From a virus (lineage: Duplodnaviria; Caudoviricetes): a DNA stretch of 64,000 bases. The first letter of the stretch is position 1, and each line of letters opens with the position of its first letter. Shown one piece after another: positions 998 through 62,015 of this stretch. The position numbers were made by a program, and so were the translations under genes. The notes under the pieces were generated by a model. The model made no database searches. It saw only the letters and a program-made list of their open reading frames with translations, and was not told where the DNA came from. Location of the stretch: the IMG/VR virus record IMGVR_UViG_3300021399_000132, positions 1 to 64,000 of that record; one strand, written 5' to 3'.

Positions 998-1044
998 TTT
1001 ATTAACTAAGTAAGTTCAAACTGCACTTCCATCTAAATAAGATG

Positions 1045-1066
1045 GGCTTTTGCTGTTAGCGAAAGT
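1045..1066 (+). repeat. hairpin motif GGCTNNNGCTGTTAGCGRWAGT, copy 1
   Basis: GGCTTTTGCTGTTAGCGAAAGT; related copies at 3259-3280 and 3491-3512. Confidence 0.75.
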
Positions 1067-1373
1067 ACCAACTCGACCAGGGAAGAAATCCTGGGGGCGC
1101 AGGTGTGACCTCCTATTAACTTGTATTTCTCCCAGTCATCAAGAGCTTATCCATCACAGTTCGGTAGATTTTTCAAGTATTTCCTGAAATTAATATTACG
1201 GTTTGTGGGAAAAATTTTATAGATCTGATGTCTATCACTGGTCTGTTACTCGAAAACCATGATTTAACTTGATCAGCTGCCGTCCCTGCGGCTGGCCTCC
1301 GCCGGATATGTGATATGAGAGTTTGAACAAGCTGAGAAATTATGAGCCAATTGATTGGTAGAAAGGAGAAATT

Positions 1374-1682
1374 ATGAGCAGAAAAGGTTTTATGTTCGAA
1401 GAAGGCGAAGAAGTACGAATTGTATGTAGCGGTTCGACATTACTGAATTGTGCAGGTGGATGGGCTAGTGAAATGGAACAGTTTGTGGGAGACGGCATTG
1501 TTTACACGGTTTTACGTCGTTTTTTGAGCAACGGTAAAACACTGCCGGCTTACAGGTTGCAAGGGCCGACAGATTATGAAACGGGATGGACATGGGATGA
1601 GCGTTTACTGGAACGGGTTGACGACCCCATCATACCGGAAGTATCTCTCGGCGATTTATTCAACGGGGGCTATGTAGTATGA
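1374..1682 (+). CDS. small SH3/KOW-like hypothetical protein, paralogue 1 of 4
   Basis: FEEGEEVRIV start; C-terminal EVSLGDLFNG; AGGAG RBS. Confidence 0.8.
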   Translation: MSRKGFMFEEGEEVRIVCSGSTLLNCAGGWASEMEQFVGDGIVYTVLRRFLSNGKTLPAYRLQGPTDYETGWTWDERLLERVDDPIIPEVSLGDLFNGGYVV

Positions 1683-1969
1683 CGCGGTTTTCTATTCAAG
1701 ATCAGGTGAGGGTAGTACGGGCAGACAGTGACTGGGAATACTGGTGTTCTGCGATGAATAACACTGTTGGTTTTGACGGAGTAGTTGTGGATTATGAAAC
1801 AGATCTTGATGGTGAGCGGTACGCGACTGTGCTTTTTACATGCCTCGATGGTGAAATCTATTTCTTCCGTGATTGTTCTCTTGAGTATTCATGGTTATTT
1901 AATGACGATGAGACACTCGAGAGTAAAATGTCCATTTCAGAATTATTAGGAGGGTTAAACAGTGCATGA
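1679..1969 (+). CDS. small SH3/KOW-like hypothetical protein, paralogue 2 of 4
   Basis: FSIQDQVRVV start; C-terminal MSISELLGG; ATGA overlap. Confidence 0.8.
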   Translation: MTRFSIQDQVRVVRADSDWEYWCSAMNNTVGFDGVVVDYETDLDGERYATVLFTCLDGEIYFFRDCSLEYSWLFNDDETLESKMSISELLGGLNSA

Positions 1970-2213
1970 ATTTAATATTGGCGACCTTGTAAAGGTGGTC
2001 AAAATACCAACCGAGTGGTTTGGATATGTTCCGGCCCTTCATAAATACTATCATGAGGTTGGAGAGATTGTTTTTAAGACGTCGGATACGGGAAACGTTT
2101 ATCGTGTTATTTTTTCTGATGGAGATGATTGGAATTTTCCAGCCAACTGCCTCGAGCTGATCCCTCAACCTGTGCTTAACCCCGGGGATTTGTCCGCGTT
2201 GTTCGGCCGGTAA
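1962..2213 (+). CDS. small SH3/KOW-like hypothetical protein, paralogue 3 of 4
   Basis: FNIGDLVKVV start; C-terminal LNPGDLSALFG. Confidence 0.8.
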   Translation: MHEFNIGDLVKVVKIPTEWFGYVPALHKYYHEVGEIVFKTSDTGNVYRVIFSDGDDWNFPANCLELIPQPVLNPGDLSALFGR

Positions 2214-2226
2214 GGAGACTATCGTT

Positions 2227-2478
2227 ATGTTTAAAGAAGGCGATATCGTAGAAGTAGTCGAAGAGCCGTGGCGTTTACATATGGACGGAGATACTGACAC
2301 GTATATTGGCAAAAAAGGCATAGTGAGATATTCAAACTACACGACGGGTAATAGCATTGTAAAGATTGAAGGTAAGATAAACTGGTTCCGTAATTCGGAA
2401 ATTGCAATTTATGACACACTTGAGCCCGGCGATTTACCGGGGCTTTTTAGAGGAGGTGGTAATAATGCCAAGAATTGA
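2227..2478 (+). CDS. small SH3/KOW-like hypothetical protein, paralogue 4 of 4
   Basis: FKEGDIVEVV start; C-terminal LEPGDLPGLFRG. Confidence 0.8.
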   Translation: MFKEGDIVEVVEEPWRLHMDGDTDTYIGKKGIVRYSNYTTGNSIVKIEGKINWFRNSEIAIYDTLEPGDLPGLFRGGGNNAKN

Positions 2479-2734
2479 AGTTAAATATAATGCTGATGAA
2501 TTTGTGACGGCAAACTTTGGTTGCGGAATAGAATCGGCAAAAGAGTATGTTAAGAAACATCCAAAGGATTCATATGGGGCAGATGATTTTGCGGAAGTAT
2601 ACCGCATGCAGGAATCTAAGCGGATGCATAAACGAGACGATCCCGGCGCTGGTTGGATAAATACAAGAGGCTGGGACGAAGAAGACCCATCATTCGATAT
2701 GGTGGTCAAGGCATATGAAAGTGAGGTTTTATGA
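2465..2734 (+). CDS. hypothetical protein
   Basis: GGAGG RBS before ATG 2465 (MPRIEVK); the ORF-track start is too long. Confidence 0.75.
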   Translation: MPRIEVKYNADEFVTANFGCGIESAKEYVKKHPKDSYGADDFAEVYRMQESKRMHKRDDPGAGWINTRGWDEEDPSFDMVVKAYESEVL

Positions 2735-2967
2735 AAGAGAATGATGTGCGTATTATCTTGACCCTTAATATGGACGACATCGAAGAGGCCATTGAATCTC
2801 AGGGATTTAATGGCTTTTTTGAGGAGCATCCAGAAGTAAAGGCCGATGCGTTTGAGTGCGCCTGTAATCGCTTGACAAAATACATTGACAATTATGCATA
2901 CGACATTATCGCGGAAGCTGTCTATGACACAGTCAGTGGTTGTCGCCTACGATACATAAGGGTTTGA
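2731..2967 (+). CDS. hypothetical protein
   Basis: ATGA overlap; GAGG RBS. Confidence 0.75.
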   Translation: MKENDVRIILTLNMDDIEEAIESQGFNGFFEEHPEVKADAFECACNRLTKYIDNYAYDIIAEAVYDTVSGCRLRYIRV

Positions 2968-2988
2968 GCGCGAAGGCGGTTTGAAAAG

Positions 2989-3171
2989 ATGAATTATTTC
3001 AAAATTGAAATCGCTTGCGAAAGTCCGCTGACATTTGAGGATTTTTGCGATTCGGTGTTCGATGATATCCTGAGCTATATTGAAATGAAAATCAAAGGCG
3101 AAGTGGGTATCGCAAGTTATTCTCAGATAGACGAACAGGGTAACACGATCATGGAGACCGGTCGGTTCTAG
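2989..3171 (+). CDS. hypothetical protein (MNYF...DE.GN), paralogue of 25502..25669
   Basis: Shared MNYF start, GEV/GDV and DE.GN end. Confidence 0.7.
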   Translation: MNYFKIEIACESPLTFEDFCDSVFDDILSYIEMKIKGEVGIASYSQIDEQGNTIMETGRF

Positions 3172-3192
3172 GCCGGTCATCCTATATTAGTT

Positions 3193-3676
3193 TAAACTCC
3201 GATGCAATTCATTCCAACAATCATTCCTCCTCTCTTACATCTACATAATTGTTGGTTTGGCTTTTGCTGTTAGCGGAAGTGCTGCATTGCCGGGGAGATT
3301 GATAACCTATAAACTTCGCCTTCGGCTCGTTTATAGGGGCTACGCCCCATTAAAAATGCCCGGATTGAGAATCCTGGCATTTTTAATTCTTTAAATCGCA
3401 ACAATCCCCAGTGCTTAGGGGAGATTGTTGCCGGATCGGAGTTTATTTACGCATGGGTTCATTGTTTTAACCTCGCATCCAAGGTTAAATGGCTACCGCT
3501 GTTAGCGATAGTAACGAAAAGGTTATCTGGTTTTCGATCAGCGACGAATCAGATTACTAAATACTCACGCTAATAATTTGAGTACTTTCCGCTTTGCTAC
3601 AACGCCCTCAAATTATTAGAGTTCGCATTTATTAATCTGGTTTTCGCACGGGAAACAGAGTTTGCCATGCGGCAAC
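3193..3676 (+). ncRNA. candidate large structured RNA or hairpin cluster
   Basis: At least nine inverted repeats in a gene-free gap, plus long-range pair TAAACTCCGAT / ATCGGAGTTTA; family not recognised. Confidence 0.45.
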
Positions 3677-3691: not shown

Positions 3692-3841
3692 ATGGAAGAT
3701 ATCATTTGGAACTGCATGCAAGGGGTTGAGCGGTTACTTAACAGTCCCTTGCCACAAGAAGTCGTCGATGAACAGATTGAGTACCTTGAGGAAACTATTA
3801 AAGAAATGGAAAGGATTGAGGATTTATGTCACGTTTTATGA
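3692..3841 (+). CDS. 49-aa hypothetical protein not in the ORF track
   Basis: GGAAGGTG RBS; MEDIIWNCMQGVERLLNSPLPQEVVDEQIEYLEETIKEMERIEDLCHVL; overlaps the next start. Confidence 0.65.
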   Translation: MEDIIWNCMQGVERLLNSPLPQEVVDEQIEYLEETIKEMERIEDLCHVL

Positions 3842-4179: not shown

Positions 4180-4775
4180 TTTCAATTTCAAAAGGGAATG
4201 CCAAGATGGGAGAAATTATGAGCGTTTCTCTTCCGGCAATTATCACCTGCGGCAAAGATGTGCCGTGTAAAAAGAAGTGCTATGCAAATCGCATTGAAGT
4301 GCGTCGTTCTAACGTAAGGGAAGCTTACGAAAAGAACTGGGGGATTTTGAAAACCGATCCTGATACATACTGGAGAGAGGTCGAGGCGTCAATTAAGATG
4401 TCTCGATTTTTTCGTTTCCATGTGTCAGGCGACATCCCCGACATGGATTATCTGAAGCGCATGTTCACTGTGGCTAGAAGAAATAAGCATTGCAAGATCC
4501 TCTGCTTTACAAAGAAGTACGATCTTGTGAATGAGTATCTCAGCACAGGCGTGCACAAACCGTCCAATCTTCTGCTGTTCTTCAGCGTTTGGCCTGGTTA
4601 TGAATGCAATAACCCGTTCCGCTTACCTGAAGCGCATGTGAGATTGAAGAACGGGAAAACGACAGCGCCGGACAAAGCTGTTGAATGCAAGGGTAATTGT
4701 TCGGAATGCGGAATTAACGATAGCGGATGCTGGGTTCTTAAGAAAGGACAGTCCGTTGTGTTTGACGAACATTGA
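4176..4775 (+). CDS. GP88-like phage protein (radical-SAM-like Cys motif)
   Basis: TC-x5-C-x3-CYA, RFHVSGD, FTK and terminal CxxxCxxC...C...VVF.EH, as in the GP88 family; TTG start. Confidence 0.7.
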   Translation: MISISKGNAKMGEIMSVSLPAIITCGKDVPCKKKCYANRIEVRRSNVREAYEKNWGILKTDPDTYWREVEASIKMSRFFRFHVSGDIPDMDYLKRMFTVARRNKHCKILCFTKKYDLVNEYLSTGVHKPSNLLLFFSVWPGYECNNPFRLPEAHVRLKNGKTTAPDKAVECKGNCSECGINDSGCWVLKKGQSVVFDEH

Positions 4776-4785
4776 GGAGGTAAAA

Positions 4786-5079
4786 ATGGGAGAAGTATAT
4801 CCTGCCATCCTGACAATGGATGATAATCTCTTCCTTATTTATATACCTGACATTGATAAGAGCGTCGCCGGAGAGGATTTTTACCAGGCGATTCAGCTTG
4901 CAAGGCAGGCAATTAAGGGATCCGACGAACATCACAATCCCTCAACACTTGAGGGTGCAATTTCCAAAGCAGTTGCTGAGGAAAAATTAATCTCACCCGC
5001 TTTTGATATGAGCAGGGAAAGACAGGTAGTAACAAGGTATCTTTTCATCGATGTGGATATCGATGCTGACAAAGGGTAA
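4786..5079 (+). CDS. HicB-like antitoxin domain protein (orphan)
   Basis: YPAIL...FLIYIPDI...AGEDFYQAIQLARQAI matches the HicB N-terminal pattern; GAGGAGG RBS before ATG 4786. Confidence 0.6.
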   Translation: MGEVYPAILTMDDNLFLIYIPDIDKSVAGEDFYQAIQLARQAIKGSDEHHNPSTLEGAISKAVAEEKLISPAFDMSRERQVVTRYLFIDVDIDADKG

Positions 5080-5094
5080 GGGAGGAAAATACAT

Positions 5095-5451
5095 ATGCCT
5101 GATGTAAAGTATTACAAACTGAAAGTAGCCGCCCAGATGGCTGGCGTATCCGAGCAGACACTTCGCAACGCGGTTCTTAACGGCCGCTTACGTGCTTCAA
5201 CGGTGCCGGGAAAGACACGCGGTCATACATATCTGATCACAGAAGATGATCTTCTTGAATGGGTAGAGGATCGCAAGACCGTTAAGGTTGAACCCACAGA
5301 AGTAACTGCGTCTCTCAAGCTCGCCACAGTTGATCAGCTTGCTGCGGAAATTCAGCGCCGCATTGAGGATAGCTACAACGAAGGGGTTAAAGCTGGTGCA
5401 AAACAGAAGGCATCAGAGTTCAAAATGCTTCTGAAGCAGGGTGGGTTTTAA
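5095..5451 (+). CDS. excisionase/MerR-like helix-turn-helix protein
   Basis: YYKLKVAAQMAGVSEQTLRNAVLNGRLRA...YLIT..DL. Confidence 0.75.
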   Translation: MPDVKYYKLKVAAQMAGVSEQTLRNAVLNGRLRASTVPGKTRGHTYLITEDDLLEWVEDRKTVKVEPTEVTASLKLATVDQLAAEIQRRIEDSYNEGVKAGAKQKASEFKMLLKQGGF

Positions 5452-5771
5452 TGCATAAGCCTCGATATGAAGATGTACGCAGAACATGTGCGCTCTGCGG
5501 AAAGGAAATTACCGGGCCGTTCGGTACATATCGATTTGGTTATGCAAACGGAATTATCTGCTATGACTGCGACGCCAAGGTTACTGAAGAGAACAGGCGT
5601 CGCCGTCAGGCGGTTAACGCCAAGCGTGTGAGACGTAGATCCGAATCTAATCCAGAAGCATCGATTACGAAAAGGATCAAGGAACTTCGCAGAGCCGGCA
5701 AAAAACCGAGCGATATTGCAAAGGAGCTCCACGTTGGGGCAAAGAAGGTTTATGAGGCTTTGAACAAATAG
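5451..5771 (+). CDS. CxxC...CxxC plus C-terminal HTH protein
   Basis: CALC, CYDC and KPSDIAKELHVG; TAATG coupling. Confidence 0.7.
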   Translation: MHKPRYEDVRRTCALCGKEITGPFGTYRFGYANGIICYDCDAKVTEENRRRRQAVNAKRVRRRSESNPEASITKRIKELRRAGKKPSDIAKELHVGAKKVYEALNK

Positions 5772-5993
5772 ATGGATGAGTTGATCAGTAAAGAAAGTGT
5801 TTTAAGAGCGCTCAAAAAGATCGAGGTTGAACCGGGAATTTCCAAAGCAGAGTGTGTCATTACGGACGCACCGGCAGTTGATGCGATTCCTGTTCAATGG
5901 ATGGTCGATGTCATCAAAGATGACTTTTGGGCGCGGAGCGATGTCATGAAAATGATTGATGCGTGGCACTACCACGTTAGAACAAATAAATAA
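5772..5993 (+). CDS. hypothetical protein (MDELIS...APAVD family)
   Basis: Typical small phage protein N-terminus. Confidence 0.75.
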   Translation: MDELISKESVLRALKKIEVEPGISKAECVITDAPAVDAIPVQWMVDVIKDDFWARSDVMKMIDAWHYHVRTNK

Positions 5994-6008
5994 GGAAGGT
6001 AAATACAT

Positions 6009-6365
6009 ATGAATATTATTCTGGCAATTCTGCTTACTATTAATCTTGCTCTCTTCGCATACTACGTCAACCTGGGTAAGAAATGCGAAGCTACTGTGGC
6101 TGTCGATGTAAATTCACTCAAAAACGAAATCTCTCAGGTTTCTGAAAAGCTGAATGGACGAATTGACGGGGTTGTTAAAGTTTCCAATGCAAACACTCAG
6201 GTTGTGATGAGCCGCTTTGAGAGTAATGAGAATGAGATTGATGATATTATTTCGAAGATGGAGTCGTATGCACAGGGTATCGCGCAGGTAGATAAAGATG
6301 TCAAAGAAATCAGACGTTACTATTGCAACTATGTCTCAAAGACGGGTGGTGATGCCGAAGAATGA
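6009..6365 (+). CDS. N-terminal TM plus coiled-coil protein
   Basis: Hydrophobic first 20 aa, heptad-like remainder. Confidence 0.75.
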   Translation: MNIILAILLTINLALFAYYVNLGKKCEATVAVDVNSLKNEISQVSEKLNGRIDGVVKVSNANTQVVMSRFESNENEIDDIISKMESYAQGIAQVDKDVKEIRRYYCNYVSKTGGDAEE

Positions 6366-6463
6366 TTCATAAAGCTTTGCTATTCTTAATCGGGTATTTG
6401 ATTGTTAGCGCAATCACATTTTTTATTGCAATAGCTCTTTGCTCGATCAATAATCTAGAGTAG
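6362..6463 (+). CDS. 33-aa single-TM peptide not in the ORF track
   Basis: ATGA overlap and GGTGGTG RBS; MIHKALLFLIGYLIVSAITFFIAIALCSINNLE. Confidence 0.6.
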   Translation: MIHKALLFLIGYLIVSAITFFIAIALCSINNLE

Positions 6464-6478
6464 TTGAGAGGTTGTAGT

Positions 6479-7093
6479 ATGTCGTTAGGGTTTGTCCTTT
6501 CCTTTATATCAATGGTTTTCATTGCTCTAGGTTATCTGCTGTTCTTTGTGTTTAAAATTGTTGCTGGTTCGATTCATTCAAATAATATGAACAAGCATGA
6601 GACGAACGTCGGGAGACTGAGGGAACGGTTGAGTTACACGCCGAGCGAAAAGATTGACGCCGTTACCGTGATGACAAGATATGTGGAAGCTGGCGCCATC
6701 GGGAAGTATTACGGCGATGAAATGGTACAGATTTTCGGAGAGAATTGGGAGCCAGAGCTGCGCAGGTTGGTTTCGAGAGAGAAGATGCATCTTAAATATA
6801 ACAACCTTTATAAATGGCTTGGGTACATTGCTTTGGCAAGAGATGGCAAATGTGGTACGAACATGCTACTGGACTTTGATGGCTTCGGCCCGACAAAGCA
6901 TAACTTAATGGCGGTTAAATGCATTGAAGACAATCTACGAAAATCAGGGCTTGACGTTCGTCTTGAAATTGCTAAAGTAGACGACACATCCTATTATGCA
7001 AGGGTGTCCGAACTGGAATACCACGGGATTTTTAATCCACCTAATTACATGTGGGAGGATGTAGTAAATGTCGAGAGATGTAATCAACATTAA
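6479..7093 (+). CDS. membrane-anchored hypothetical protein
   Basis: GAGAGG RBS before ATG 6479; long N-terminal hydrophobic helix. Confidence 0.7.
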   Translation: MSLGFVLSFISMVFIALGYLLFFVFKIVAGSIHSNNMNKHETNVGRLRERLSYTPSEKIDAVTVMTRYVEAGAIGKYYGDEMVQIFGENWEPELRRLVSREKMHLKYNNLYKWLGYIALARDGKCGTNMLLDFDGFGPTKHNLMAVKCIEDNLRKSGLDVRLEIAKVDDTSYYARVSELEYHGIFNPPNYMWEDVVNVERCNQH

Positions 7094-7961
7094 TGTACTC
7101 AAAGAAAACAGGGTACGAAAACTTGCCGATGGCATGATCGCCCCGGCAAAAGAACACTTCGAAGAAGAACTCGCAATTGATCACTCTGCTGATCCGATTA
7201 AAGATCTCCATGATATTAACCGGATTTCGAAGTACTTGATTGAACATGGACGGTACAGGGATAACATGCTGTTCATTGTTGGGATCAACTTCGGTTTGAG
7301 AGTGAGTGACCTGCGGGTTCTTCGCTTTTCCAATCTGATTAATGACAATTTAACTTTCAAAGATACGTTCCCGGTTTTTGAAAAGAAAACCAGAAATACA
7401 AGAAAGAAGAAAAAGAACCGCTACATCACGGTAAATAATGCCGTTGTTGATGCGGTTACTTTGTTCTTGGAACACACTGATGGTATTAGCCTGAGCGACT
7501 ATATGTTTAAGGCAACTTCGAACCGTGGCAAAAATCTGGGTAAACCACTTGCCATTCAGTCGATCAACAGGATCTTGACTGATCTGGCAAATGAACTTCA
7601 TCTCAATATTAAGATGTCGAGCCACTCATTAAGAAAGACATTCTGTTACCATCAGATGGTAATGAGCAACAACGATCCTCGAAAGCTTCTCCTGCTGCAG
7701 AAGATGCTCAACCATTCGTCACCGGCAATGACCTTAGAGTACATTGGTATTACGGGCGAGGAAATCGAGGAAGCGTACAAGAAACTTAACTTGGGTTCTT
7801 TAACAGAGAACTATCTTGTCGACAGCACCATTATGGAATGTGGTACAGCCGACGATGAACCGGAGACAACAGAGATTGTCAACAAGCCGCAGGAATATGC
7901 AATCAAATTCCCGCAGGCAATTACAAATACAGAGCAGCCAAGCAATACGGTGTACAGCTAA
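7068..7961 (+). CDS. XerD-like tyrosine recombinase
   Basis: Catalytic set present: GLRVSDL, HSLRKTF, LNHS, LEYIG; no arm-binding N-terminal domain. Confidence 0.9.
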   Translation: MSRDVININVLKENRVRKLADGMIAPAKEHFEEELAIDHSADPIKDLHDINRISKYLIEHGRYRDNMLFIVGINFGLRVSDLRVLRFSNLINDNLTFKDTFPVFEKKTRNTRKKKKNRYITVNNAVVDAVTLFLEHTDGISLSDYMFKATSNRGKNLGKPLAIQSINRILTDLANELHLNIKMSSHSLRKTFCYHQMVMSNNDPRKLLLLQKMLNHSSPAMTLEYIGITGEEIEEAYKKLNLGSLTENYLVDSTIMECGTADDEPETTEIVNKPQEYAIKFPQAITNTEQPSNTVYS

Positions 7962-8285: not shown

Positions 8286-8540
8286 ATGAATGAAGAGAAG
8301 TTGGAGTTTGATATTGACTTCGATGCGGAAGTAAAGGAACGGGCTTTCCAATTAGAAAAGCAAGGTGTTCTGTTGTGTAAAGATTGTCATTACGCAAAGC
8401 AGTCACCAGTTAAAGGGATGTACCATTGCTCTTACTGGGGAATGCATACCGATTACTACGGGTTTTGTTATAAGGCCACAAAAAGGTCATCTATTGACAA
8501 TGATGAGTTGATCAACTTCGTTTCAAGCCTTATCGATTAA
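8286..8540 (+). CDS. small four-Cys motif protein
   Basis: CKDC...C...FCY. Confidence 0.75.
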   Translation: MNEEKLEFDIDFDAEVKERAFQLEKQGVLLCKDCHYAKQSPVKGMYHCSYWGMHTDYYGFCYKATKRSSIDNDELINFVSSLID

Positions 8541-8555
8541 AGAGGAGGAATAATA

Positions 8556-8789
8556 ATGAAATCTTTTACGGTAAATAAACCGATTACAAAGCCTTTATTG
8601 GTTAAGCCGAAAAAGGCAGACGGTAGTAAGGTCATTGAGTGCGTGAATTGCAAGTTCAGGGTTGAACATCACTATGAAGATGAAGGTGAAGAGCCGTATA
8701 TCAAGTTGACATGCGGGAATAAATACGGGCTCACTGAAAACTATATAGTTCATGATGACGACTATTGTTCAAGAGCTGAGGTGAGATAA
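8556..8789 (+). CDS. small four-Cys motif protein
   Basis: CVNC...C...DYCSRAE; GAGGAGG RBS. Confidence 0.75.
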   Translation: MKSFTVNKPITKPLLVKPKKADGSKVIECVNCKFRVEHHYEDEGEEPYIKLTCGNKYGLTENYIVHDDDYCSRAEVR

Positions 8790-9328
8790 TGGTAGATTTA
8801 GGAGCATATGCGCAGATCGAGAATCTTAATGGGATTATGAATTCAAATGGAATTCGTGTTCCAAGATTGAGAGGGCTTCGCCTGATGGTTAATGAAGAAC
8901 CGATCGACATTGATGAGGTGTGCAAGAACGTTGAGATTGACCTGGTCGAACACTTGTGCAGATGCGGTTGGAACCCGAAGGCCAACTGGCACAACTATTA
9001 CTGGAGAACAGACCGGGCAATTAAGAAATATGTTGATTACAAAAATAATCGTGTCAGATGGGAGTTAATTCATGGCAAAAAACGTCGTATTTTGAAGACA
9101 GAAGTGAAGAATCAGGTCAAAAAATATAGAAAACAGTACGAAATGTACAACAAATACGCTGGTAAAACTGGTGTTTTGTACATCCACGCAAGAATCGGCG
9201 GTGGGAATTGGCCGACATATTACAAAGACGTGGTTGGTAAACCGTGGTTTATTGAAAGAATAGATGACGCTTTTGATAGTACGTACTGTGACATCTATGC
9301 AAGAATAAAGGAGGTTGATGACGAATGA
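8789..9328 (+). CDS. conserved phage hypothetical protein
   Basis: TAATG coupling; HARIGGGNW motif. Confidence 0.8.
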   Translation: MVDLGAYAQIENLNGIMNSNGIRVPRLRGLRLMVNEEPIDIDEVCKNVEIDLVEHLCRCGWNPKANWHNYYWRTDRAIKKYVDYKNNRVRWELIHGKKRRILKTEVKNQVKKYRKQYEMYNKYAGKTGVLYIHARIGGGNWPTYYKDVVGKPWFIERIDDAFDSTYCDIYARIKEVDDE

Positions 9329-10449
9329 TTTATCTTGACAACGCTGCTTCGACTAAGATGTCTCCGGGGGTTATTGAGGCAATGAAGTCCTATCTCGGAG
9401 AAGGGTGTTATGGGAATCCTGACTCGGTGCATTCGATTGGTATCAATGCAAACTCAATGGTTAATGCGGCAAGGATGGCAGTTGCAGATGCAATCGGGGC
9501 AAAGCCTGAGCAGATCATTTTCACTTCCGGTGGAACGGAAGCAAACAACCTGGCGATCCTCGGATGCGGGGCGAGGTATGGTGTCTGTTCGTATGGAGAA
9601 CATGACTCAGCATATAATGCGATCATGAAATATCCGGCGCATAAAATTGTCCGGCTTACCAACAAGGGCGATATTGATTATGACGATCTGGAAAAGGTGC
9701 TTAACAAGGCGGCTGGATGGGATGCTGTGCTGGCTTTCTCTGCGGTGAACAACGAGGTTGGGTCTGTAAATCAGATTAATAAAATTGCCGAGTTGAAGCC
9801 AGCTGATGCGTGGCTCCATATTGATTATGTACAGGCATTTGGGCAGTATCCAATTAACGTGAATGATTACGCCATCGATTCGATGTCGTTGTCGTCCCAC
9901 AAGATTCACGGGCCGCAGGGCGTAGGGGCTCTGTATGTAAGAAGACCTGAGAAACTTAAGCCAATTTTACAGGGTTCGACGGCGCAGGAGTTTGGACTCC
10001 GTCCGGGTACAAAAAATGTTCTCGGTATTGTCGGGTTTGGTAAGGCGTGCAAGGAGGTGGCGCAGGGTTTAACGGCAGTTCCAATTACAACGAGAGATTT
10101 ATTTGTGAAATGCTTATTAAAAGAAATGAAAGATGCATTTGGTGATAAGGCGTATGATATAATAAGAATCAATGGTTGGAGCAATCCGAAAATTGTAAGC
10201 CTGACCATCCGTGGTGTTGATGCAGAAACATTAATCATGATGCTCTCAGCCGACGGCGTATGTGTCTCGGCTGGATCTGCGTGCCACGCACACGAATCTA
10301 AGCCAAGTAGGGTTCTTACTGCGATGGGGATTTCGGATGCGGATGCGATGTGCACAATCAGGGTTTCGTTCTCCAGCGTAACAACAAATATGGAGGTTGC
10401 CGTGGCGGCAGACAAGATTGTTTGTGCCGTTAAAACAGTGAGGACTTAA
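9325..10449 (+). CDS. iscS: cysteine desulfurase, IscS/NifS family
   Basis: MIYLDNAAST, FTSGGTEANN, HIDYVQ, SSHKIHGPQG (PLP Lys), SAGSAC (catalytic Cys), IRVSF. Confidence 0.95.
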   Translation: MIYLDNAASTKMSPGVIEAMKSYLGEGCYGNPDSVHSIGINANSMVNAARMAVADAIGAKPEQIIFTSGGTEANNLAILGCGARYGVCSYGEHDSAYNAIMKYPAHKIVRLTNKGDIDYDDLEKVLNKAAGWDAVLAFSAVNNEVGSVNQINKIAELKPADAWLHIDYVQAFGQYPINVNDYAIDSMSLSSHKIHGPQGVGALYVRRPEKLKPILQGSTAQEFGLRPGTKNVLGIVGFGKACKEVAQGLTAVPITTRDLFVKCLLKEMKDAFGDKAYDIIRINGWSNPKIVSLTIRGVDAETLIMMLSADGVCVSAGSACHAHESKPSRVLTAMGISDADAMCTIRVSFSSVTTNMEVAVAADKIVCAVKTVRT

Positions 10450-10451
10450 TT

Positions 10452-10859
10452 ATGGGAAATGAGTACTTTATTGATATAGAAAAGGCTGTTGAAGAGAAAC
10501 GACGCGAGGATCTGGTTGATCTGTTGCGTGTGATTTCCGAAAAAATAAACAATAAGAACGTAGAATATATAATAGATGTGCACCAAGTTGCAAGATTCGA
10601 ATTGATAAAAGAGCGCATTCAATCATATTTTGCAGATATGCCAGAATTTTCTGTTAAAAATTCTATTGATGAAGATTGTACCAGCGGCTTAATAACTATT
10701 ACCGCCGAAGGCGTTTTAAATTTGGAACTTACTGAAGAGATAAAGATGCTGTTGAAAAATTGCACAAGGATGGATATTTCGCCACGCAATAACGGCATTG
10801 TTGATTTGGACTTTAATTTTCTTAACTTTCGTAAGAAACGCTATAGAGGTGACAAATGA
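10452..10859 (+). CDS. hypothetical protein
   Basis: Coupled to iscS. Confidence 0.75.
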   Translation: MGNEYFIDIEKAVEEKRREDLVDLLRVISEKINNKNVEYIIDVHQVARFELIKERIQSYFADMPEFSVKNSIDEDCTSGLITITAEGVLNLELTEEIKMLLKNCTRMDISPRNNGIVDLDFNFLNFRKKRYRGDK

Positions 10860-11194
10860 TGAATTGTGTTGAACTGGCGAATGCTATTTTGACTGGTGAA
10901 GTCGAAAAAAAACAATATTCCAAACCTCTATTAGACGACGCATTGTATAATAATGTAATGGTAGCTGTCACTGCATTGTCAAAATTATTTGATACCGATG
11001 AGGAACGCAGTTTCGATGTTGAAATAACCCGGAACGGAAATGCTGTTAATGTTGAGGTGTGTTTCAACACGTATTATTTTCAATTTACACAGATCAGCGG
11101 ATTGGTTTTTGATTCGGTCTTCGCAAATGCAAAACGATTGGTCGTCACAACAGTAGATGACGACAATTTGGTTAATGTTAAATTGATATATTGA
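10856..11194 (+). CDS. hypothetical protein
   Basis: ATGA overlap; GAGGTG RBS. Confidence 0.75.
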   Translation: MMNCVELANAILTGEVEKKQYSKPLLDDALYNNVMVAVTALSKLFDTDEERSFDVEITRNGNAVNVEVCFNTYYFQFTQISGLVFDSVFANAKRLVVTTVDDDNLVNVKLIY

Positions 11195-12266: not shown

Positions 12267-13259
12267 GTGTATAATGACGCAATTAAGAGGCGATATCTCG
12301 ACGAGATAGACGCGCACAATCGCACATTGGCAATGTATGAAGGCGATCTTGAAAGGATTTCTCGTCTCGAAACAAAGCTCGGCAAAGACCTGAGCGCTTT
12401 TACTGTTGATGAGTTCGAAGAGGCAGTAAATAGTATTGGTGGGGTTTCAACACATTCATTACAAACTCGCGCATGTTTACTGAAAAGATATGCAAGGTGG
12501 GTAATCGATAGCGGTTTGGATGAATTGAATCCAAATCATGCGCTTTACAATCTATCAGTAACGGAAGTTGCGGATACAACTTCTAACATCTCTAAAAGTT
12601 TAATTAAAGATCCACAACACTTAAAAAGGATTCTTGATGCAATTGACGAGTACAATGAAACGCCGCCTTCGTTTATGGGGTTAAATAAAATAAGACGCGT
12701 TTTTGCGTGGCTCATGTATTCAGGGTTTGCACAAGAAGATATAGTCATGGTGAAAGACAGTGATGTGGATATCAAACATCGAATGATTACATTTAAATCT
12801 GATGTTTACCCAATTTATTATTTGGCATTGCAGGATTTTCAAGATCTGCTTTCTATGGAAACTATGTCTACAAAGAAAACCTCGAAGAAGATCGTCATGC
12901 AATTTCCAAGAGTGGATGGCGATCTTCTCCTTCGGGGAGAAGCAAACCCGGTTTTTAAGTCCTTATATAATAACTTTGGCATGCTTGTAGCCGCAGCTGG
13001 AAAAGTAAACCCGGTCGTAATACCATTGCCATATAAAAAAGTTCACATCTCTGGGCTCTTTTACCAAGCATATCTAGAAGAGATTGAAACTGGATTGGAA
13101 CCGCGATTCAGAGTACAGGCGGAACGTGACCTAGAAACATCAAAAGATTGGGAAACGGCGAGCATTGAATCGAAGCGTGACAGGATTTATAAGAAAGCTC
13201 TGAATTACCGAACCGATTATAAAAAATGGAAAAATGCATTCGATCTTGTGAATAATTAA
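12267..13259 (+). CDS. MrpR/YopR-like repressor (degenerate tyrosine-recombinase fold)
   Basis: MYN..IK..YLD, ETKLGKDLSAFT, S.Q....LL..Y..W.I, L.YSG...D.V.VK..DVD, SGLFYQAY resemble SPbeta YopR/MrpR; similar length (330 aa); no HxxR...H...Y catalytic set. Confidence 0.7.
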   Translation: MYNDAIKRRYLDEIDAHNRTLAMYEGDLERISRLETKLGKDLSAFTVDEFEEAVNSIGGVSTHSLQTRACLLKRYARWVIDSGLDELNPNHALYNLSVTEVADTTSNISKSLIKDPQHLKRILDAIDEYNETPPSFMGLNKIRRVFAWLMYSGFAQEDIVMVKDSDVDIKHRMITFKSDVYPIYYLALQDFQDLLSMETMSTKKTSKKIVMQFPRVDGDLLLRGEANPVFKSLYNNFGMLVAAAGKVNPVVIPLPYKKVHISGLFYQAYLEEIETGLEPRFRVQAERDLETSKDWETASIESKRDRIYKKALNYRTDYKKWKNAFDLVNN

Positions 13260-13261
13260 AC

Positions 13262-13286
13262 AAACCTGCGGAAGCGCAGGTTTTTC
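13262..13286 (+). terminator. intrinsic terminator
   Basis: AAACCTGCG-GAAG-CGCAGGTTT followed by a T run. Confidence 0.85.
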
Positions 13287-13340
13287 TTTACATACTAAAA
13301 TAAACAGCTACACTATAAATACAACCAATGAAATCATGAT
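13287..13340 (+). promoter_or_regulatory. sigmaA-like promoter of the replication operon with downstream CAACCAATGAAATCATGAT box
   Basis: TTTACA-16-TACACT; the box matches 22212-22230 at 18 of 19 nt. Confidence 0.5.
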
Positions 13341-13418
13341 ACACGGAGAAAAGGGTAAATGCAGTTCGACTCTGCAATTCTCCATCACCAAGCAGAGCAA
13401 GGAGGTCAGGTAAAGATC

Positions 13419-14192
13419 ATGGAAGAGATTGAAGAAGTAAAACTCAACTTGGTTCAGAAACTCGCCAAGATCAGGGAAATGTCCAATGCTGTAACAAAAT
13501 CTAAATCCGGTTATGGTTACAAGTATGCAGACATTACTGAAATTTTGGCAAAAGTCACAGCCGGAATGAAGAAGTACAGCGTAAGTCTTATCCCGGAGAT
13601 TGTGCCAGGTACATTCGTGGTAGAAACTATCCGCAAAGAGAAGACTAAAAAAGCGAAAGACGGAACGCCATTCATCGAGGTGTCAATGGAGTCTCAGGTT
13701 AATGCGCAGATGTTATTCAAGTGGGTTAATGATGAGAACGCCGAAGAAACAATCACGGTGCCGTGGCATCTTGTTGGATCGCAGTCAGATCCATCGCAGG
13801 CTATGGGGTCAGCCCTTACATATTGTACGAGGTATTTCTTGACAGAGTATTTCCAGATTGCAACGCCAGAAGATGATGTCGATGCATACCGCAGCAAGCA
13901 GAAAGAGGCTGAGGAGCAGGAAGAAAAGGCACTGGTTGAAGCAATGGTTTCCGAGATTGATCAGGCAGTTAGAACATATCTCGAAGGGCATTCTGACAAG
14001 GGCGATGAAGTAAAAGAATTCATTGGCAGATATGTAAAGGGTTCCAACTATACGAAGATTAAGGACTCTAATACTGCCGGCAGACTTCTCAACGACTTTA
14101 AAGCAAAGTTTGTCGAAGTGCAGGTAAGTTCCCAGGCCGAGGAACCTGAGAAAGTGAAGCAGGAAGAGAAGAAAGGTAAAGGTGGAAAATAA
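13419..14192 (+). CDS. ERF-family ssDNA annealing protein
   Basis: GYGYKYADITEI and QAMGSALTYCTRY motifs; GGAGG RBS before ATG 13419. Confidence 0.85.
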   Translation: MEEIEEVKLNLVQKLAKIREMSNAVTKSKSGYGYKYADITEILAKVTAGMKKYSVSLIPEIVPGTFVVETIRKEKTKKAKDGTPFIEVSMESQVNAQMLFKWVNDENAEETITVPWHLVGSQSDPSQAMGSALTYCTRYFLTEYFQIATPEDDVDAYRSKQKEAEEQEEKALVEAMVSEIDQAVRTYLEGHSDKGDEVKEFIGRYVKGSNYTKIKDSNTAGRLLNDFKAKFVEVQVSSQAEEPEKVKQEEKKGKGGK

Positions 14193-58806: not shown

Positions 58807-59487
58807 CTACAATTTAGCAATCCTTTCATTGACGCGCTGCATAGCTTTATTGTTGTGTTCGTTGGATATGCTGCAAAACCTTTCGAACATTTCTCCTTTT
58901 TCTGCTTCTTCCAGTTTGCGTCTAAAAATATCTAAAGGAGATTCTGATTGAAATGCCGGGCTGTCATACCAACGACCAAACCTATGCTTAAACATAGTTC
59001 CATCGTCGTCCATGACCCATCCAACCGTTCTCCAATAGGGAGTGCCCTCCGCCGGGTGATATCCCCATTTCTTCGGGTTTGTCGTAATCTTGGTAGCTCC
59101 GCCATGAAATCCCATTTCAAATACGACTTTATACAATTCTTTATTATTCCCATGACGATCTGGAGCCATTTTACTCGCATCAATTAGGTCGTCAGCTGTT
59201 TCGTAATCAAGTTGCCCAGTAGATTTATCTATATCTAAATCTGCTAATAAATTATATAAGCTTTCTCTTCGTCTATATCTAACAGGATCATATGCTCCAT
59301 ACCATTCTGCAACGGCGGAATTAAACACATCCCGAACGATTCTTTTTTGTTCTGGAACAAATTCGTCATTGACTTTTGCCATCTCCTTTGACACTTCTTC
59401 ATTCATGATATCTTGAACAGCCTTTACACGCTCAGCTATTCTCTTATTTACGGCGGAGATTACCTTGTTCACTTCTTCACTGCTCAT
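58807..59487 (-). CDS. tail-region hypothetical protein
   Basis: Y.P..Y.R...L motif; precedes TMP. Confidence 0.7.
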   Translation of the reverse strand: MSSEEVNKVISAVNKRIAERVKAVQDIMNEEVSKEMAKVNDEFVPEQKRIVRDVFNSAVAEWYGAYDPVRYRRRESLYNLLADLDIDKSTGQLDYETADDLIDASKMAPDRHGNNKELYKVVFEMGFHGGATKITTNPKKWGYHPAEGTPYWRTVGWVMDDDGTMFKHRFGRWYDSPAFQSESPLDIFRRKLEEAEKGEMFERFCSISNEHNNKAMQRVNERIAKL

Positions 59488-59878
59488 CCATCATACTCCC
59501 GGTTTGTAATATTAACCTGGCGCTTTCCAAAATTGCATCAATCTGAGCAGGATTTGTTCTTTTGTAGACAATTTCAAAAAGGTCTGACGCGTAAATTATG
59601 TAATATAAAGTGTCGATATCGGTTGGCAAATCAACGTAGGCATATGCGTTAATAATATTGACCCTAAAAGAAAAATCTAATAACATGAACGATTTGCTGT
59701 AGTCATCTCCAATACAATCTTGCACGATGGCGGACACGACTCCTGTAAATTCGTCTAGTGTGAGCATACTTTTGACTATTATTTCTGAGGTGTGCCACAA
59801 TGCCTTTTTACATTGCCTGCCGGACACGCCTGCCAATCTTACAACATCATTCGATGACAATTTCTTAATTTGACCCAT
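59477..59878 (-). CDS. tail-region hypothetical protein, similar to the next gene
   Basis: I.VK..L.LDEF...V..IV..C...Y...L.DF..R..II..Y..V.LP.DI..LY pattern shared with 59921..60508. Confidence 0.65.
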   Translation of the reverse strand: MGQIKKLSSNDVVRLAGVSGRQCKKALWHTSEIIVKSMLTLDEFTGVVSAIVQDCIGDDYSKSFMLLDFSFRVNIINAYAYVDLPTDIDTLYYIIYASDLFEIVYKRTNPAQIDAILESARLILQTGSMMDEQ

Positions 59879-59920
59879 AATTTCATCGATGCCAATGCGG
59901 CACCCTCCTTTCTTAATTGA

Positions 59921-60508
59921 TTATCCTCTCTTTTCTACGAGTTTATGATCGCGCTTTTTCCTTTCATCAAGCAACGCAGAAACAATTTTATTTTCATCAA
60001 TATTTGCATTTGACAGTACTTTGATAAAGTCTTCGAATTGTTCTCCATCAACTTCTCCAACCGTCTCATTCAAAACATTCGCCAGACTCTTCATCATTGC
60101 ATAGATGTCTGCCATCTGCTTTTCTGCGGCAGATCTTCTGTCGTACTTAATTAAGTTGATATGTTCGTTGATCGCAGACCACAGAGTGTCGAGCTGGTCA
60201 GGATCAATTACCTCATATACGGCGTCACACAGATTTGTTCCATACAAGATCTTGTATTCAGCCGCAATATCTTCAGGCATTTCGATATTTGTATATCTGC
60301 GGATTAACTCCCGACGACGTTCAAAATCAAGAACGGCAGGGTAGTAATCGCCATTCTCATCAATGCATCCGGCAACCACATCATCGATATATCCCATTGC
60401 ATCTTCAACCGGGAGGAATCTCTTTACCTCAATTGTGTAACCATTCCATTCAAAAGTTCTAACATCGTTTTCAACAATCGATTCATTAATAGCAACTTTT
60501 TCTGCCAT
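59921..60508 (-). CDS. possible tail assembly chaperone
   Basis: AGGAG RBS before ATG 60508; acidic helical protein upstream of TMP. Confidence 0.6.
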   Translation of the reverse strand: MAEKVAINESIVENDVRTFEWNGYTIEVKRFLPVEDAMGYIDDVVAGCIDENGDYYPAVLDFERRRELIRRYTNIEMPEDIAAEYKILYGTNLCDAVYEVIDPDQLDTLWSAINEHINLIKYDRRSAAEKQMADIYAMMKSLANVLNETVGEVDGEQFEDFIKVLSNANIDENKIVSALLDERKKRDHKLVEKRG

Positions 60509-60509
60509 A

Positions 60510-61031
60510 TTATTCTCCTTCTTTTTCCTTAGCTTTCCATGACGGCAACTCTTCATCTGCTGCCGCATATTCGTGCACAACTATATCCAAAACAGTCCTC
60601 GGATTGTCGTGGTCTGTTGCACACTCCAAAGTAATTTTCGCGATGTGTTCAGAGTCGTCATCATCAATCATTCCACTCTGCACAAGCCCATCAAGAATGA
60701 ACTTTGGCACACCGTTGTCGAGATCATGTCTACGATTCGTCTCGTAAAATATCTTCTGCGAAATCTCACATCGCTTTATGCGCAGGTTAGAATAACCTCG
60801 ATCTTCGACAAGCCAACATATAAAATCTTTCCATTTTTGTTTCAGCCCGTTCATCATAGGCCGACGCATAATCATCCATTGATTTATGCTTTCGTGATAC
60901 GGATGCTTGATAGGACGTACCCGAGCTTTGGGATGTAAAGTAAAATATGCTTCGGTATAACGATCCAATAAAGCATTATCAATTACCAACGTAATTTCAT
61001 CTGATATCTCCTTGTCCAAAATTTGTCTCAC
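60510..61031 (-). CDS. RusA-like Holliday junction resolvase
   Basis: RRHDLDNG.PKFILDGLV..G.I.DDD...I. Confidence 0.8.
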   Translation of the reverse strand: MRQILDKEISDEITLVIDNALLDRYTEAYFTLHPKARVRPIKHPYHESINQWMIMRRPMMNGLKQKWKDFICWLVEDRGYSNLRIKRCEISQKIFYETNRRHDLDNGVPKFILDGLVQSGMIDDDDSEHIAKITLECATDHDNPRTVLDIVVHEYAAADEELPSWKAKEKEGE

Positions 61032-61049
61032 TTTCGCTTTTAAGCTAAA

Positions 61050-61087
61050 TAAAGAAAAGAAGGCATCCCATTACGAGATACCTTCTT
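61050..61087 (-). terminator. intrinsic terminator after the five-gene module
   Basis: AAGAAGGTATC...GATGCCTTCTT then TTCTTT on the minus strand. Confidence 0.7.
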
Positions 61088-61167
61088 ACACCCTCAAAAA
61101 TAAAAAATACCAAGATTAAACAAAGTTGTACTTACACATTCTAGGCCGTTACCACCAGATGTTAGAG

Positions 61168-61566
61168 TTATTCAGCCGCGACCTTAGCAATCCAACCGGC
61201 CAGAATGCCACGCTCATATTCTGAGCCAGCATCATCCATCATTCTTTCCAGCCGATCTACGATCCGATCGTTGATGCTATGACGGCTCTCGCCATGGTCA
61301 TAGCGCTCATATCGATTTGAATATCTACGGCCTCTGCCTCTTGCATAATTGCCACGACGATAAGAAGAGTATGATCCACCGCGTTCGGAATATTCATCCT
61401 CATCTTCGTCGACGTCTTCGTTGAATTTGCGAATCTTTTCAAGCAAACAGACAGCTTCTTTCGCGTTCTGAACTTCAGCAGGGGTGAGGTCTCCTTTTTT
61501 GACCATCTTCTCGAGTTCGGTACTGATCGTATCCTCGAGGTTCTCTAAAACTCTTTCGATCTCCAT
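61168..61566 (-). CDS. module gene 5: acidic helices with an R/G/Y/S-rich disordered core
   Basis: YSERGGSYSSYRRGNYARGRGRRYSNRYERYDH. Confidence 0.8.
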   Translation of the reverse strand: MEIERVLENLEDTISTELEKMVKKGDLTPAEVQNAKEAVCLLEKIRKFNEDVDEDEDEYSERGGSYSSYRRGNYARGRGRRYSNRYERYDHGESRHSINDRIVDRLERMMDDAGSEYERGILAGWIAKVAAE

Positions 61567-61574
61567 AATTCACC

Positions 61575-62015
61575 TCACGCCCGCTGAATGACAATATTTG
61601 CATTTGTCATTGCAATCGGAATAGTACTTGTATTTGTAATTGTGACTGTTTCACAGCAGCCTCTCCATACTTCGACGTTTGCCGCACGGCTCACGTTGAA
61701 GAACTCTTCGACAGCTGCCGGAGTTACAATCATCTCTGTAGCAGGTACGTTTGCCCCGTCAAGTGCAATCGCAACCGAAATCGGCCCGACTGTTTCATTT
61801 TCAGGCACTGCGATATTAGCTCCGAAATCAACAAAATAGTTCGCTGTTTTCTTACATCTGCACGCAGTAGGGGAAACATATCCGCTCAGAAGGAAGTTGC
61901 CAGCTCCTTCTCTGTGTCTAACAAAGCCGTATCTGCATGGCTCAACAGTGACATTGAACACAGCAGATGCGCCCGGATTGATTACCTGTCTAGCATCATT
62001 ACTGAATTCAGCCAT
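61575..62015 (-). CDS. module gene 4: Cys-containing beta-sandwich (BclA-CTD-like)
   Basis: PC..G.V.HREG.G.F.L, CRC, FGANIAVP, GCC.TVTI.N; GGAGGTG RBS before ATG 62015. Confidence 0.75.
   Translation of the reverse strand: MAEFSNDARQVINPGASAVFNVTVEPCRYGFVRHREGAGNFLLSGYVSPTACRCKKTANYFVDFGANIAVPENETVGPISVAIALDGANVPATEMIVTPAAVEEFFNVSRAANVEVWRGCCETVTITNTSTIPIAMTNANIVIQRA

Follow-up and report, generated by a model that had tools for sequence, protein, structure and literature searches.

The DNA analysed here, hereafter the window, covers positions 1 to 64,000 of a virus contig of IMG/VR that is 89.7 kb long (estimated to be 76% complete; labelled G000 among the contigs compared), and our subject is a hairpin that occurs three times near its start, together with the larger RNA units to which the three copies belong. 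The phage is of the siphovirus type, with a double-stranded DNA (dsDNA) genome whose full size is roughly 110 kb and a tape-measure gene split in two pieces. It encodes a DnaE-type DNA polymerase, a DnaB helicase, a primase, an Erf-like annealing protein and an MrpR-like repressor, and a co-oriented early gene cluster of ~30 kb lies downstream of the hairpins. The region of the hairpins gave no match in a tRNA scan, in cultured-phage sequences (blastn against INPHARED) or in the Rfam families, in which the retron msr families were included and matches were sought both at the gathering score and at E-values of up to 5.

The hairpin and the larger unit around it

A degenerate 21-mer (GCTNNNGCTGTTAGCGNNAGT, up to two mismatches) matches the window only at 1046-1066, 3260-3280 and 3492-3512 (copies 1 to 3 of the hairpin, here called H2), while the mean was 0.02 matches in 100 shuffled sequences, none of which reached three. 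The three intergenic plus-strand copies described in an earlier note on this DNA were thus confirmed. Two other exact GCTGTTAGC sites, at 38515 and 53718 on the minus strand, are chance matches; they lie inside coding sequence and the stem is absent. When folded as plus-strand RNA with ViennaRNA, the copies have a stem in common, as the same note had proposed, but its 8-bp stem with a UGUUA loop is replaced by a 9-bp stem with a GUU triloop, an extra U-A pair being closed in each copy. Copy 3 carries the changes that had been attributed to it, namely T-A to A-T, T.G to C-G and one C.A mismatch.

Covariation from the three window copies alone is weak, and 39 family members from 13 related contigs were used. 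A pattern scan of IMG/VR led to a distant relative, G001, with three hairpin copies on the same strand, and the DNA polymerase used as a query yielded 76 related loci; a scan of genome contigs returned two distant loci only, one of them in a Clostridia metagenome-assembled genome from goat rectum. Covariance models were built from the hairpin first and then from the whole element, and the search of the related contigs identified 39 units in 13 contigs (1 to 6 per contig). The window holds exactly three units by the covariance model. All of the units lie on the strand of the early/replication genes, and none is located within the late cluster. The genomes bearing the element all belong to one clade of large uncultured gut or rumen phages, which is widespread.

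In the 39-member family, 97.7% of the cells of the H2 stem are paired, and seven of its nine pairs vary on both sides; the covariance-model search of the window genome and its relatives therefore found the hairpin both present and covarying in the 13 related contigs. The arms of H2 vary compensatorily even within a single genome (GCUUUC/GGAAGU versus UCCCCC/GAGGGA in G001). Sense-strand G.U pairs are common, for example in 31 of 38 cases at the pair at the base of the stem. Because a G.U pair on the sense strand would be an A.C mismatch on the other strand, this bias supports a plus-strand fold, and the preference for plus-strand RNA that had been read from the wobbles of the three copies is borne out family-wide. 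The apex of H2 is identical among all units of one genome and differs between genomes (GUU, UUU, AAA and GAU types), as is expected if one genome-specific reader recognises all units. With the pairing under selection, the wobbles strand-specific and the apical variant uniform in each genome, the general idea of the earlier note is supported: H2 is a plus-strand RNA hairpin that is probably read by a protein.

H2 belongs to a unit that spans 220-315 nt and consists, from 5' to 3', of a repeat of 7-11 nt (a2), an unpaired G, a first hairpin (H1), H2, a tail box (AACAAC-UUGA), a long structured stretch, a second G and a second repeat (a1) that complements a2 exactly. H1, of ~6 bp and without conserved sequence, abuts H2 directly. 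The stretch after the tail is 100-300 nt long, structured and fast-evolving, and differs between units. In the 39-member alignment, which was fitted to the model and so favours structure, 96.6% of the cells are standard pairs; the share falls to 68.6% when the sequences are shuffled and to 35-52% in the slid controls. Of the 15 pairs, 13 vary on both sides, and all six pairs of H1 covary, with 4-6 pair types each. The complementarity of H1 is nonetheless plain in the raw sequences. A small open reading frame (ORF) or a Shine-Dalgarno (SD) sequence within H2 was considered and rejected; the triplet after the tail is UUG, AUG, ACG, UCG or AAG, and the 3' arm covaries.

The closing helix of the unit is formed by the 7-13 nt just 5' of the conserved G, which exactly complement a stretch 100-300 nt downstream of H2. 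Of 38 units, 28 have a perfect anchored complement of at least 8 nt, whereas a null that combines different units gives 1.8%; the base preceding a1 is G in 28 of 30 units, and unconstrained minimum free energy (MFE) folds close a2/a1 in 29 of 30. The free MFE folds of the three window units, U1, U2 and U3, all close this helix and hold H1, H2 and the downstream hairpins (z-scores in Table 1), so that G1023 opposes G1319, G3204 opposes G3434 and G3457 opposes G3664. Comparison of the orthologues in G000 and the related contig G002 revealed compensatory a2/a1 changes in all three window units. In G002, for example, the a2 of U1 reads ATTCAAACT and pairs with AGTTTGAAT, and the core of U3 reads CACATGG and pairs with CCATGTG. 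The conserved G after a2, which is the G of the family box 'atGca', is by analogy with retrons a candidate branching G, that is, the residue whose 2'-OH serves as primer (PMC7736814). Taken together, the architecture predicted from these features is that of a retron msr-msd RNA.

The features of the three units are listed in Table 1. U2 and U3 lie in tandem and fill a gene-free block of nested hairpins of roughly 480 nt. The conserved tail may mark the msr/msd boundary. Each unit of the family precedes an SD-bearing ORF by 11-75 nt or by a few hundred nt, and when U1 is folded together with the sequence downstream, anti-SD-like tracts of its template region pair with the SD of the ORF that begins at 1374 (ORF 1374). 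Each template region occurs in the genome once only, and template/target pairs like those of diversity-generating retroelements were rejected for this reason.

Table 1. Units U1-U3 of the window, their parts, and the first genes behind U1 and U3 (R3 is a covariance model)
Feature	Position	Strand	Basis
U1, retron-like msr-msd RNA gene, complete, 315 nt	1014..1328	+	MFE z = -3.3; R3 64.5 bits, E = 8e-14
U1 a2 repeat GTTCAAACT	1014..1022	+	Perfect 9-nt complement of 1320-1328
U1 unpaired G after a2, candidate branching G	1023	+	Conservation of the family box
U1 H1, CCATCT / AGATGG, loop AAATA	1029..1045	+	Fold; six H1 pairs covary
U1 H2 (copy 1), candidate RT-recognition stem-loop of msr	1046..1066	+	Fold, covariation, 21-mer match
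U1 conserved tail ACCAACTCGACC (family consensus AACAACUUGA)	1067..1078	+	Family alignment
U1 msd-like template region, last base G1319 opposing G1023	1079..1319	+	Long irregular hairpin in MFE fold
U1 a1 repeat AGTTTGAAC	1320..1328	+	Complement of a2
Gene next behind U1, 102 aa, leading a series of small putative paralogues	1374..1682	+	ORF list; SD 45 nt past a1
U2, retron-like msr-msd RNA gene, complete, 253 nt	3193..3445	+	MFE z = -6.3; R3 32.3 bits
U2 a2 repeat TAAACTCCGAT, then conserved G3204	3193..3203	+	11 nt, 100% complementary to 3435-3445; compensated in G002
U2 H1, 8-bp stem, 26-nt loop with UACAU words	3214..3255	+	Fold
U2 H2 (copy 2)	3260..3280	+	Fold, 21-mer match
U2 msd-like region, three hairpins including terminator-like stem 3349-3387; ends at G3434	3281..3434	+	Repeats, fold
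U2 a1 repeat ATCGGAGTTTA	3435..3445	+	Complement of a2
U3, retron-like msr-msd RNA gene, about 225 nt, in tandem with U2	3446..3675	+	MFE z = -4.5; R3 34 bits
U3 a2 core CGCATGG, then conserved G3457	3450..3456	+	Pairs with 3665-3671 in MFE fold
U3 H1, 8-9 bp	3465..3489	+	Fold
U3 H2 (copy 3)	3492..3512	+	Fold, 21-mer match
U3 msd-like region, up to G3664; its single long hairpin pairs two 36-nt arms, 3547-3582 and 3607-3642	3513..3664	+	Repeats, fold
U3 a1 core CCATGCG	3665..3671	+	Fold; compensatory change in G002
First gene after U3, 49 aa, ATG at 3692	3692..3841	+	ORF list; orthologous start in G002

Wherever the H1 loop is long, it contains the word UACAUA(A), as seen at 3222-3247 of the window and in the related units G002_93308, G003_101172, G009_37078, G009_41521, G025_18507 and G025_18842. 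UACAU is the cut site of the Bacillus-type MazF. Behind U1, four consecutive small ORFs (~83-102 aa) occupy 1374-2478 of the window; a PHROG search gave no hit for the first of them (1374..1682) or for any of the others. BLAST links to G002 suggest that at least some of these ORFs are paralogues.

A reverse transcriptase gene beside the units of related phages

Whole-genome comparison of the relatives revealed that the gene directly downstream of one unit encodes a reverse transcriptase (RT) in each of them. All 11 relatives whose contigs cover this region (G001, G002, G003, G007, G008, G009, G010, G012, G017, G025 and, partly, G004) have a unit ahead of the RT gene. In the seven relatives that were mapped, the a1 repeat of this unit ends 18-32 nt before the start codon of the RT gene; in the other four, the RT was placed beside the unit by tblastn. 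Additional units follow the RT gene. Phylogenetic profiling for a partner protein was uninformative, the element-bearing genomes being one clade that shares most of its proteins, but it did expose the RT.

The RTs of the clade are 380-456 aa long and 48-65% identical to each other, a degree of conservation about like that of the structural genes. Their best models in PADLOC are RT_II-A/I-A/III-A (E = 1e-42 to 1e-47), and their best model in NCBIfam is retron_St85_RT (147-173 bits), with the group II intron RT at 71-89 bits. The solved structures matched with E < 1e-6 are all retron RTs (Ec78, Ec83, Ec67 and Kva2; best E = 5e-19). The marks of retron RTs are NAXXH in region X, between RT2 and RT3, in which the H is most conserved, and VTG in region Y, in RT7, in which the G is most conserved (PMC7736814). 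The RT of the clade carries YADD, and its region X between RT2 and RT3 reads xALYH or xxLYH with an invariant H, or NALYH in G007 and G025. By its sequence, this RT belongs to the retron clade. It represents a large, unnamed family that is found in metagenomes, on contigs of up to ~117 kb.

The RT gene of the window phage is inferred to lie within ~1-2 kb upstream of position 1, because the window is syntenic with G002 and G003 and its contig is only 76% complete. In G003, the order is a unit, the RT gene, a small gene homologous to the window ORF at 269-682 and then the orthologue of U1; the window begins inside a small gene of the kind that is located between the RT gene and U1 in G003.

Several further features of the clade were recorded. 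Compared with the other members, the RT of G025 (12504-13874) is longer by ~70 aa, inserted between its RT motifs 1 and 2. Directly upstream of the RT-adjacent unit and in the same orientation, the clade has a conserved cassette. One of its products is ThiF/E1-like (matched by Pfam ThiF and by the PADLOC E1-E2 models), one of ~280-340 aa matches JAB weakly, and two others are ~490-506 aa and ~131-149 aa long (L012:10904-11581(-) in G001; L131:1835-2653(-) and L169:1381-4911(-) in G002). Its make-up suggests a kit for ubiquitin-like conjugation that has been joined to the retron module. Also encoded in the early part of the window is a class-V aminotransferase (9325-10449; Pfam Aminotran_5, E = 8e-59), which is 36-61% identical within the clade. 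In G001, the gene for the DnaE-type polymerase is in two pieces ~850 nt apart, with a stop codon (G001:C1:64430-68411; L013, L014); the split may represent an intron, of which the window genome has many, or an insertion of another kind.

Interpretation and alternatives

We consider it likely, judging from the sequences, that each of the three hairpins is the conserved msr stem-loop of its own retron-type RNA gene and that one phage RT serves all three templates in trans. A single retron-type RT, encoded just past the start of the truncated contig, would bind H2 and its surroundings, prime from the 2'-OH of the G after a2 (G1023, G3204 or G3457) and copy the RNA from beside a1 (template G1319, G3434 or G3664) in the direction of the conserved tail. 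Three distinct multicopy single-stranded DNAs (msDNAs), of up to ~240, 150 and 150 nt, would result. Transcription of the units probably continues into the genes downstream, since each unit immediately precedes an early gene or operon.

The candidate roles of these DNAs are control of the downstream genes, decoys that act against host defences, and defence by the prophage. It is possible, although we put this forward tentatively, that the RT and its set of templates are not defence cargo but belong to the early programme of the phage itself, as a retron with one enzyme and many templates that serves gene control or counter-defence. Reverse transcription of each leader would then give a distinct folded single-stranded DNA (ssDNA), remodel or destroy the leader RNA and switch the operon behind it; alternatively, the ssDNAs would work as decoys against the defences of the host.

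Several points weigh against the assignment to retrons. The service of several template RNAs by one RT is not a described property of retrons, and no canonical retron effector was identified beside the units. The terminator-like hairpin of U2 could end the RNA before a1 is reached. The base before the candidate branching G is U and not the usual A of the UAGC motif. The RT is divergent, since its 147-173 bits are below the curated NCBIfam cut-off of 235 for retron_St85_RT, and in an alignment made by eye its VTG position reads NLG, LLG or HLG, so that the G alone is kept. Furthermore, the window contig itself contains no RT gene detectable by tblastn, and the msDNAs, the activity of the RT and the ends of the RNAs are predictions.

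Among the alternatives, the one that fares best, although we regard it as improbable, is that the units act as riboregulators or structured 5' leaders, with a protein-binding handle in common, and are not reverse transcribed. The RT-adjacent copy alone, if any, would then be a true retron RNA, and the others would be duplicated handles reused, for example, for RNA stability, processing or translation control of early operons. The positions of the units ahead of SD-bearing ORFs, the pairing of the anti-SD-like tracts of the U1 template with the SD of ORF 1374 in the extended fold, the fast evolution of the downstream regions and the lack of an RT on the window contig all agree with this explanation. 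However, the units that are not adjacent to an RT gene also keep the compensating a2/a1 helix, both opposing Gs and the long hairpin, and an element for stability or processing needs no helix that places the 3' end by a conserved unpaired G.

The earlier note had favoured a nut/boxB-like antitermination signal, and we consider such a signal, or a put-like one, very unlikely. The nut site of lambda consists of boxA and the boxB hairpin, which is read by N, and phage HK022 has the put RNAs. In a signal of this type, the hairpin and box would load a factor on RNA polymerase for read-through of terminators. The units do resemble nut and put in that a small sense-strand hairpin and a conserved single-stranded box are located near the start of early operons, here upstream of the ~30-kb co-oriented cluster. 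The terminator-like stems that the note had seen after copy 2 are indeed present, but they lie inside an RNA, U2, that is closed by the conserved 11-bp a2/a1 helix (3193-3203 with 3435-3445), and this helix is compensated in a relative. The boxA consensus is absent, there being no UCUUU-type box (CGCUCUUA-like) beside H2, and the H2 loop is a triloop of varying sequence (GUU, UUU, AAA or GAU) instead of a GNRA-like pentaloop. No N-like protein was identified either, but no search was aimed at N-, Q- or LoaP-like genes, and homology would hardly reveal an N-like protein. A second identical signal, U3, placed right after U2 would be redundant. In addition, antitermination gives no reason for a terminal closing helix with opposing Gs or for a retron RT 18-32 nt downstream. 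The same a2/a1-closed architecture is found at all three copies and, directly before the RT gene, in the relatives, and it does not support the nut/boxB proposal.

Even less probable is a signal that is used as ssDNA, either a lagging-strand origin like the single-strand origins (sso) of plasmids or an N4-like hairpin promoter. In the ssoA origins of rolling-circle plasmids, the CS-6 box (TAGCGT/A) is located in the terminal loop of a long hairpin, and an RS-B site is present. H2 resembles ssoA as a strand-specific, hairpin-forming element with TAGCG, the likeness of which to CS-6 had prompted the origin proposal of the earlier note. In the family, however, this TAGCG is not conserved, since the apex becomes GCGUUUCGC, GCCAAAGGC or GCGGAUCGC in relatives. 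The element is an RNA of the transcribed strand, and its position, that of an operon leader, follows the starts of genes and the location of the RT gene. Moreover, its carrier is a tape-measure siphovirus of roughly 110 kb with its own DnaB, primase and DnaE-type polymerase, that is, a large dsDNA phage and not a rolling-circle replicon. The proposal of an ssoA/CS-6 origin is thus not supported. N4-type promoters fold in the template strand. For the window phage, this type of promoter was rejected on the grounds that the tape-measure gene is split, that no ORF exceeds 1435 aa, that a giant virion RNA polymerase is lacking and that the wobbles are on the non-template strand.

Weakest of all, and hardly credible, is the reading of H2 as a dsDNA operator for an MrpR-like (integrase-fold) repressor, analogous to the SPBRE operators of phage SPbeta, ~ten of which are located at early promoters (PMC10516654); although the phage encodes an MrpR-like protein (Pfam MrpR_N_CB, 12267-13259), H2 is an inverted repeat and the element is, like SPBRE, repeated at several early transcription units, SPBRE as extracted from seven SPbeta promoter regions is an unrelated 15-bp AT-rich duplex sequence at the promoter/ribosome-binding site (AAATACAAAWAATATGTATA) without covarying stems or a closing helix, and a duplex site would keep its half-sites, whereas the arms of H2 vary compensatorily and H1 has no conserved sequence. 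A second integrase-fold protein of the window (7068-7961, 297 aa; Pfam Phage_integrase) is more conserved within the clade than any other early protein (62-86% identity) and could, like MrpR, be a regulator rather than a recombinase.

Promoters of other kinds were also rejected. For a promoter of a phage sigma factor or of a T7-like RNA polymerase, neither Sigma70_r2 nor PF00940 was matched in G000 and five relatives, the PF00940 negative being weak because the control was also unmatched. A Sigma-A promoter, sought by eye and by scanning, was dismissed because no consistent -35/-10 is present upstream; the semi-conserved 'box' in that position is composed of the 3' end of a2, the G and the linker. 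A YonO promoter was set aside because the YonO homologues sit with the late cluster on the other strand, where no element lies. These YonO-type single-chain RNA polymerases, the genes of which adjoin the late cluster, are ~29-31% identical to SPbeta YonO and 58-64% identical within the clade (G002 4795-7569(+), G025 113147-115882(-), G007 4558-7116(+), G009 59148-61748(+), G008 71456-74194(+) and G001 8516-10933(+)); such a gene is absent from the truncated contig of the window. In SPbeta itself (AF020713), ~1.7 kb between yonN and yonK (59153-60833; L149:2654-4334(-)) contain no annotated gene, and this stretch is the reported start of the late transcript made by YonO (PMC5467207).

Comparison with retrons

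Retrons are bacterial anti-phage systems composed of one RT, one template RNA and an effector. Among the canonical retrons, the St85/Ec78/Ec83 group (types II-A and I-A of Mestre et al. 2020, PMC7736814) is the nearest by RT sequence. In retron msr-msd transcripts, inverted repeats at the two ends hybridise and two G residues oppose each other; the msr has one to three short hairpins, the msd has a long one, and the RT gene lies just downstream (PMC7736814). Like them, the window units are closed by a2/a1 repeats with two opposing Gs and contain short msr hairpins (H1 of 6-9 bp; a conserved H2 of 9 bp with a 3-nt loop), both of which covary, and in the relatives the RNA ends a few tens of nt before an RT gene of the retron clade in the same orientation. 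With a single or double long hairpin with a 10-50 bp stem taken as the criterion for an msd, the msd-like fold is one long hairpin with 36-nt arms in U3, a long irregular hairpin in U1 and three separate hairpins in U2.

The phage units also differ from canonical retrons. In the phages, one RT is accompanied by 3-7 dispersed RNA genes, which have a common handle and unrelated template regions. The set is a conserved module of a phage clade and not a sporadic bacterial defence island, and it adjoins no known effector. The VTG triplet of the RT is not kept, the template regions are long (150-240 nt), and each unit heads an early gene or operon of the phage.

A further point of comparison is Retron-Vpa2, of type VI, in which the template and a downstream coding sequence are carried by one structured transcript (hybrid RNA, hyRNA), and msDNA synthesis derepresses translation (bioRxiv 10.1101/2025.10.22.683967). 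A hyRNA-like switch is counted among the options for the phage units because the units precede early genes and because the extended fold of U1 pairs the SD of ORF 1374; the logic of Vpa2 would fit units that are set directly before early genes. That reverse transcription alters expression here as it does in Vpa2 is a guess, prompted by one alternative predicted fold of U1. Vpa2 is a bacterial defence operon with one RNA, a helix-turn-helix protein and a small toxin, whereas the present case concerns several RNAs in a phage.

A literature search found no paper on one retron RT with several template RNAs or on such a conserved phage module, and retron-like RTs in viral contigs have been counted in bulk only (PMC13681634). 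If our interpretation is true, these phages would provide a natural case of one retron RT that serves several templates in trans, which would be of practical interest for retron-based DNA production and editing. If the DNA is made, a phage clade would use reverse transcription routinely in infection or lysogeny, which raises the question of the role of small ssDNAs for the virus. For annotation, the gene-free blocks of nested hairpins in these phages would be retron-type RNA genes and not terminators, origins or new giant RNAs. In comparison with the bacterial systems, the retron design would here recur as a module that one clade of large phages from gut or rumen has conserved, in which one RT is combined with several templates through a shared handle.

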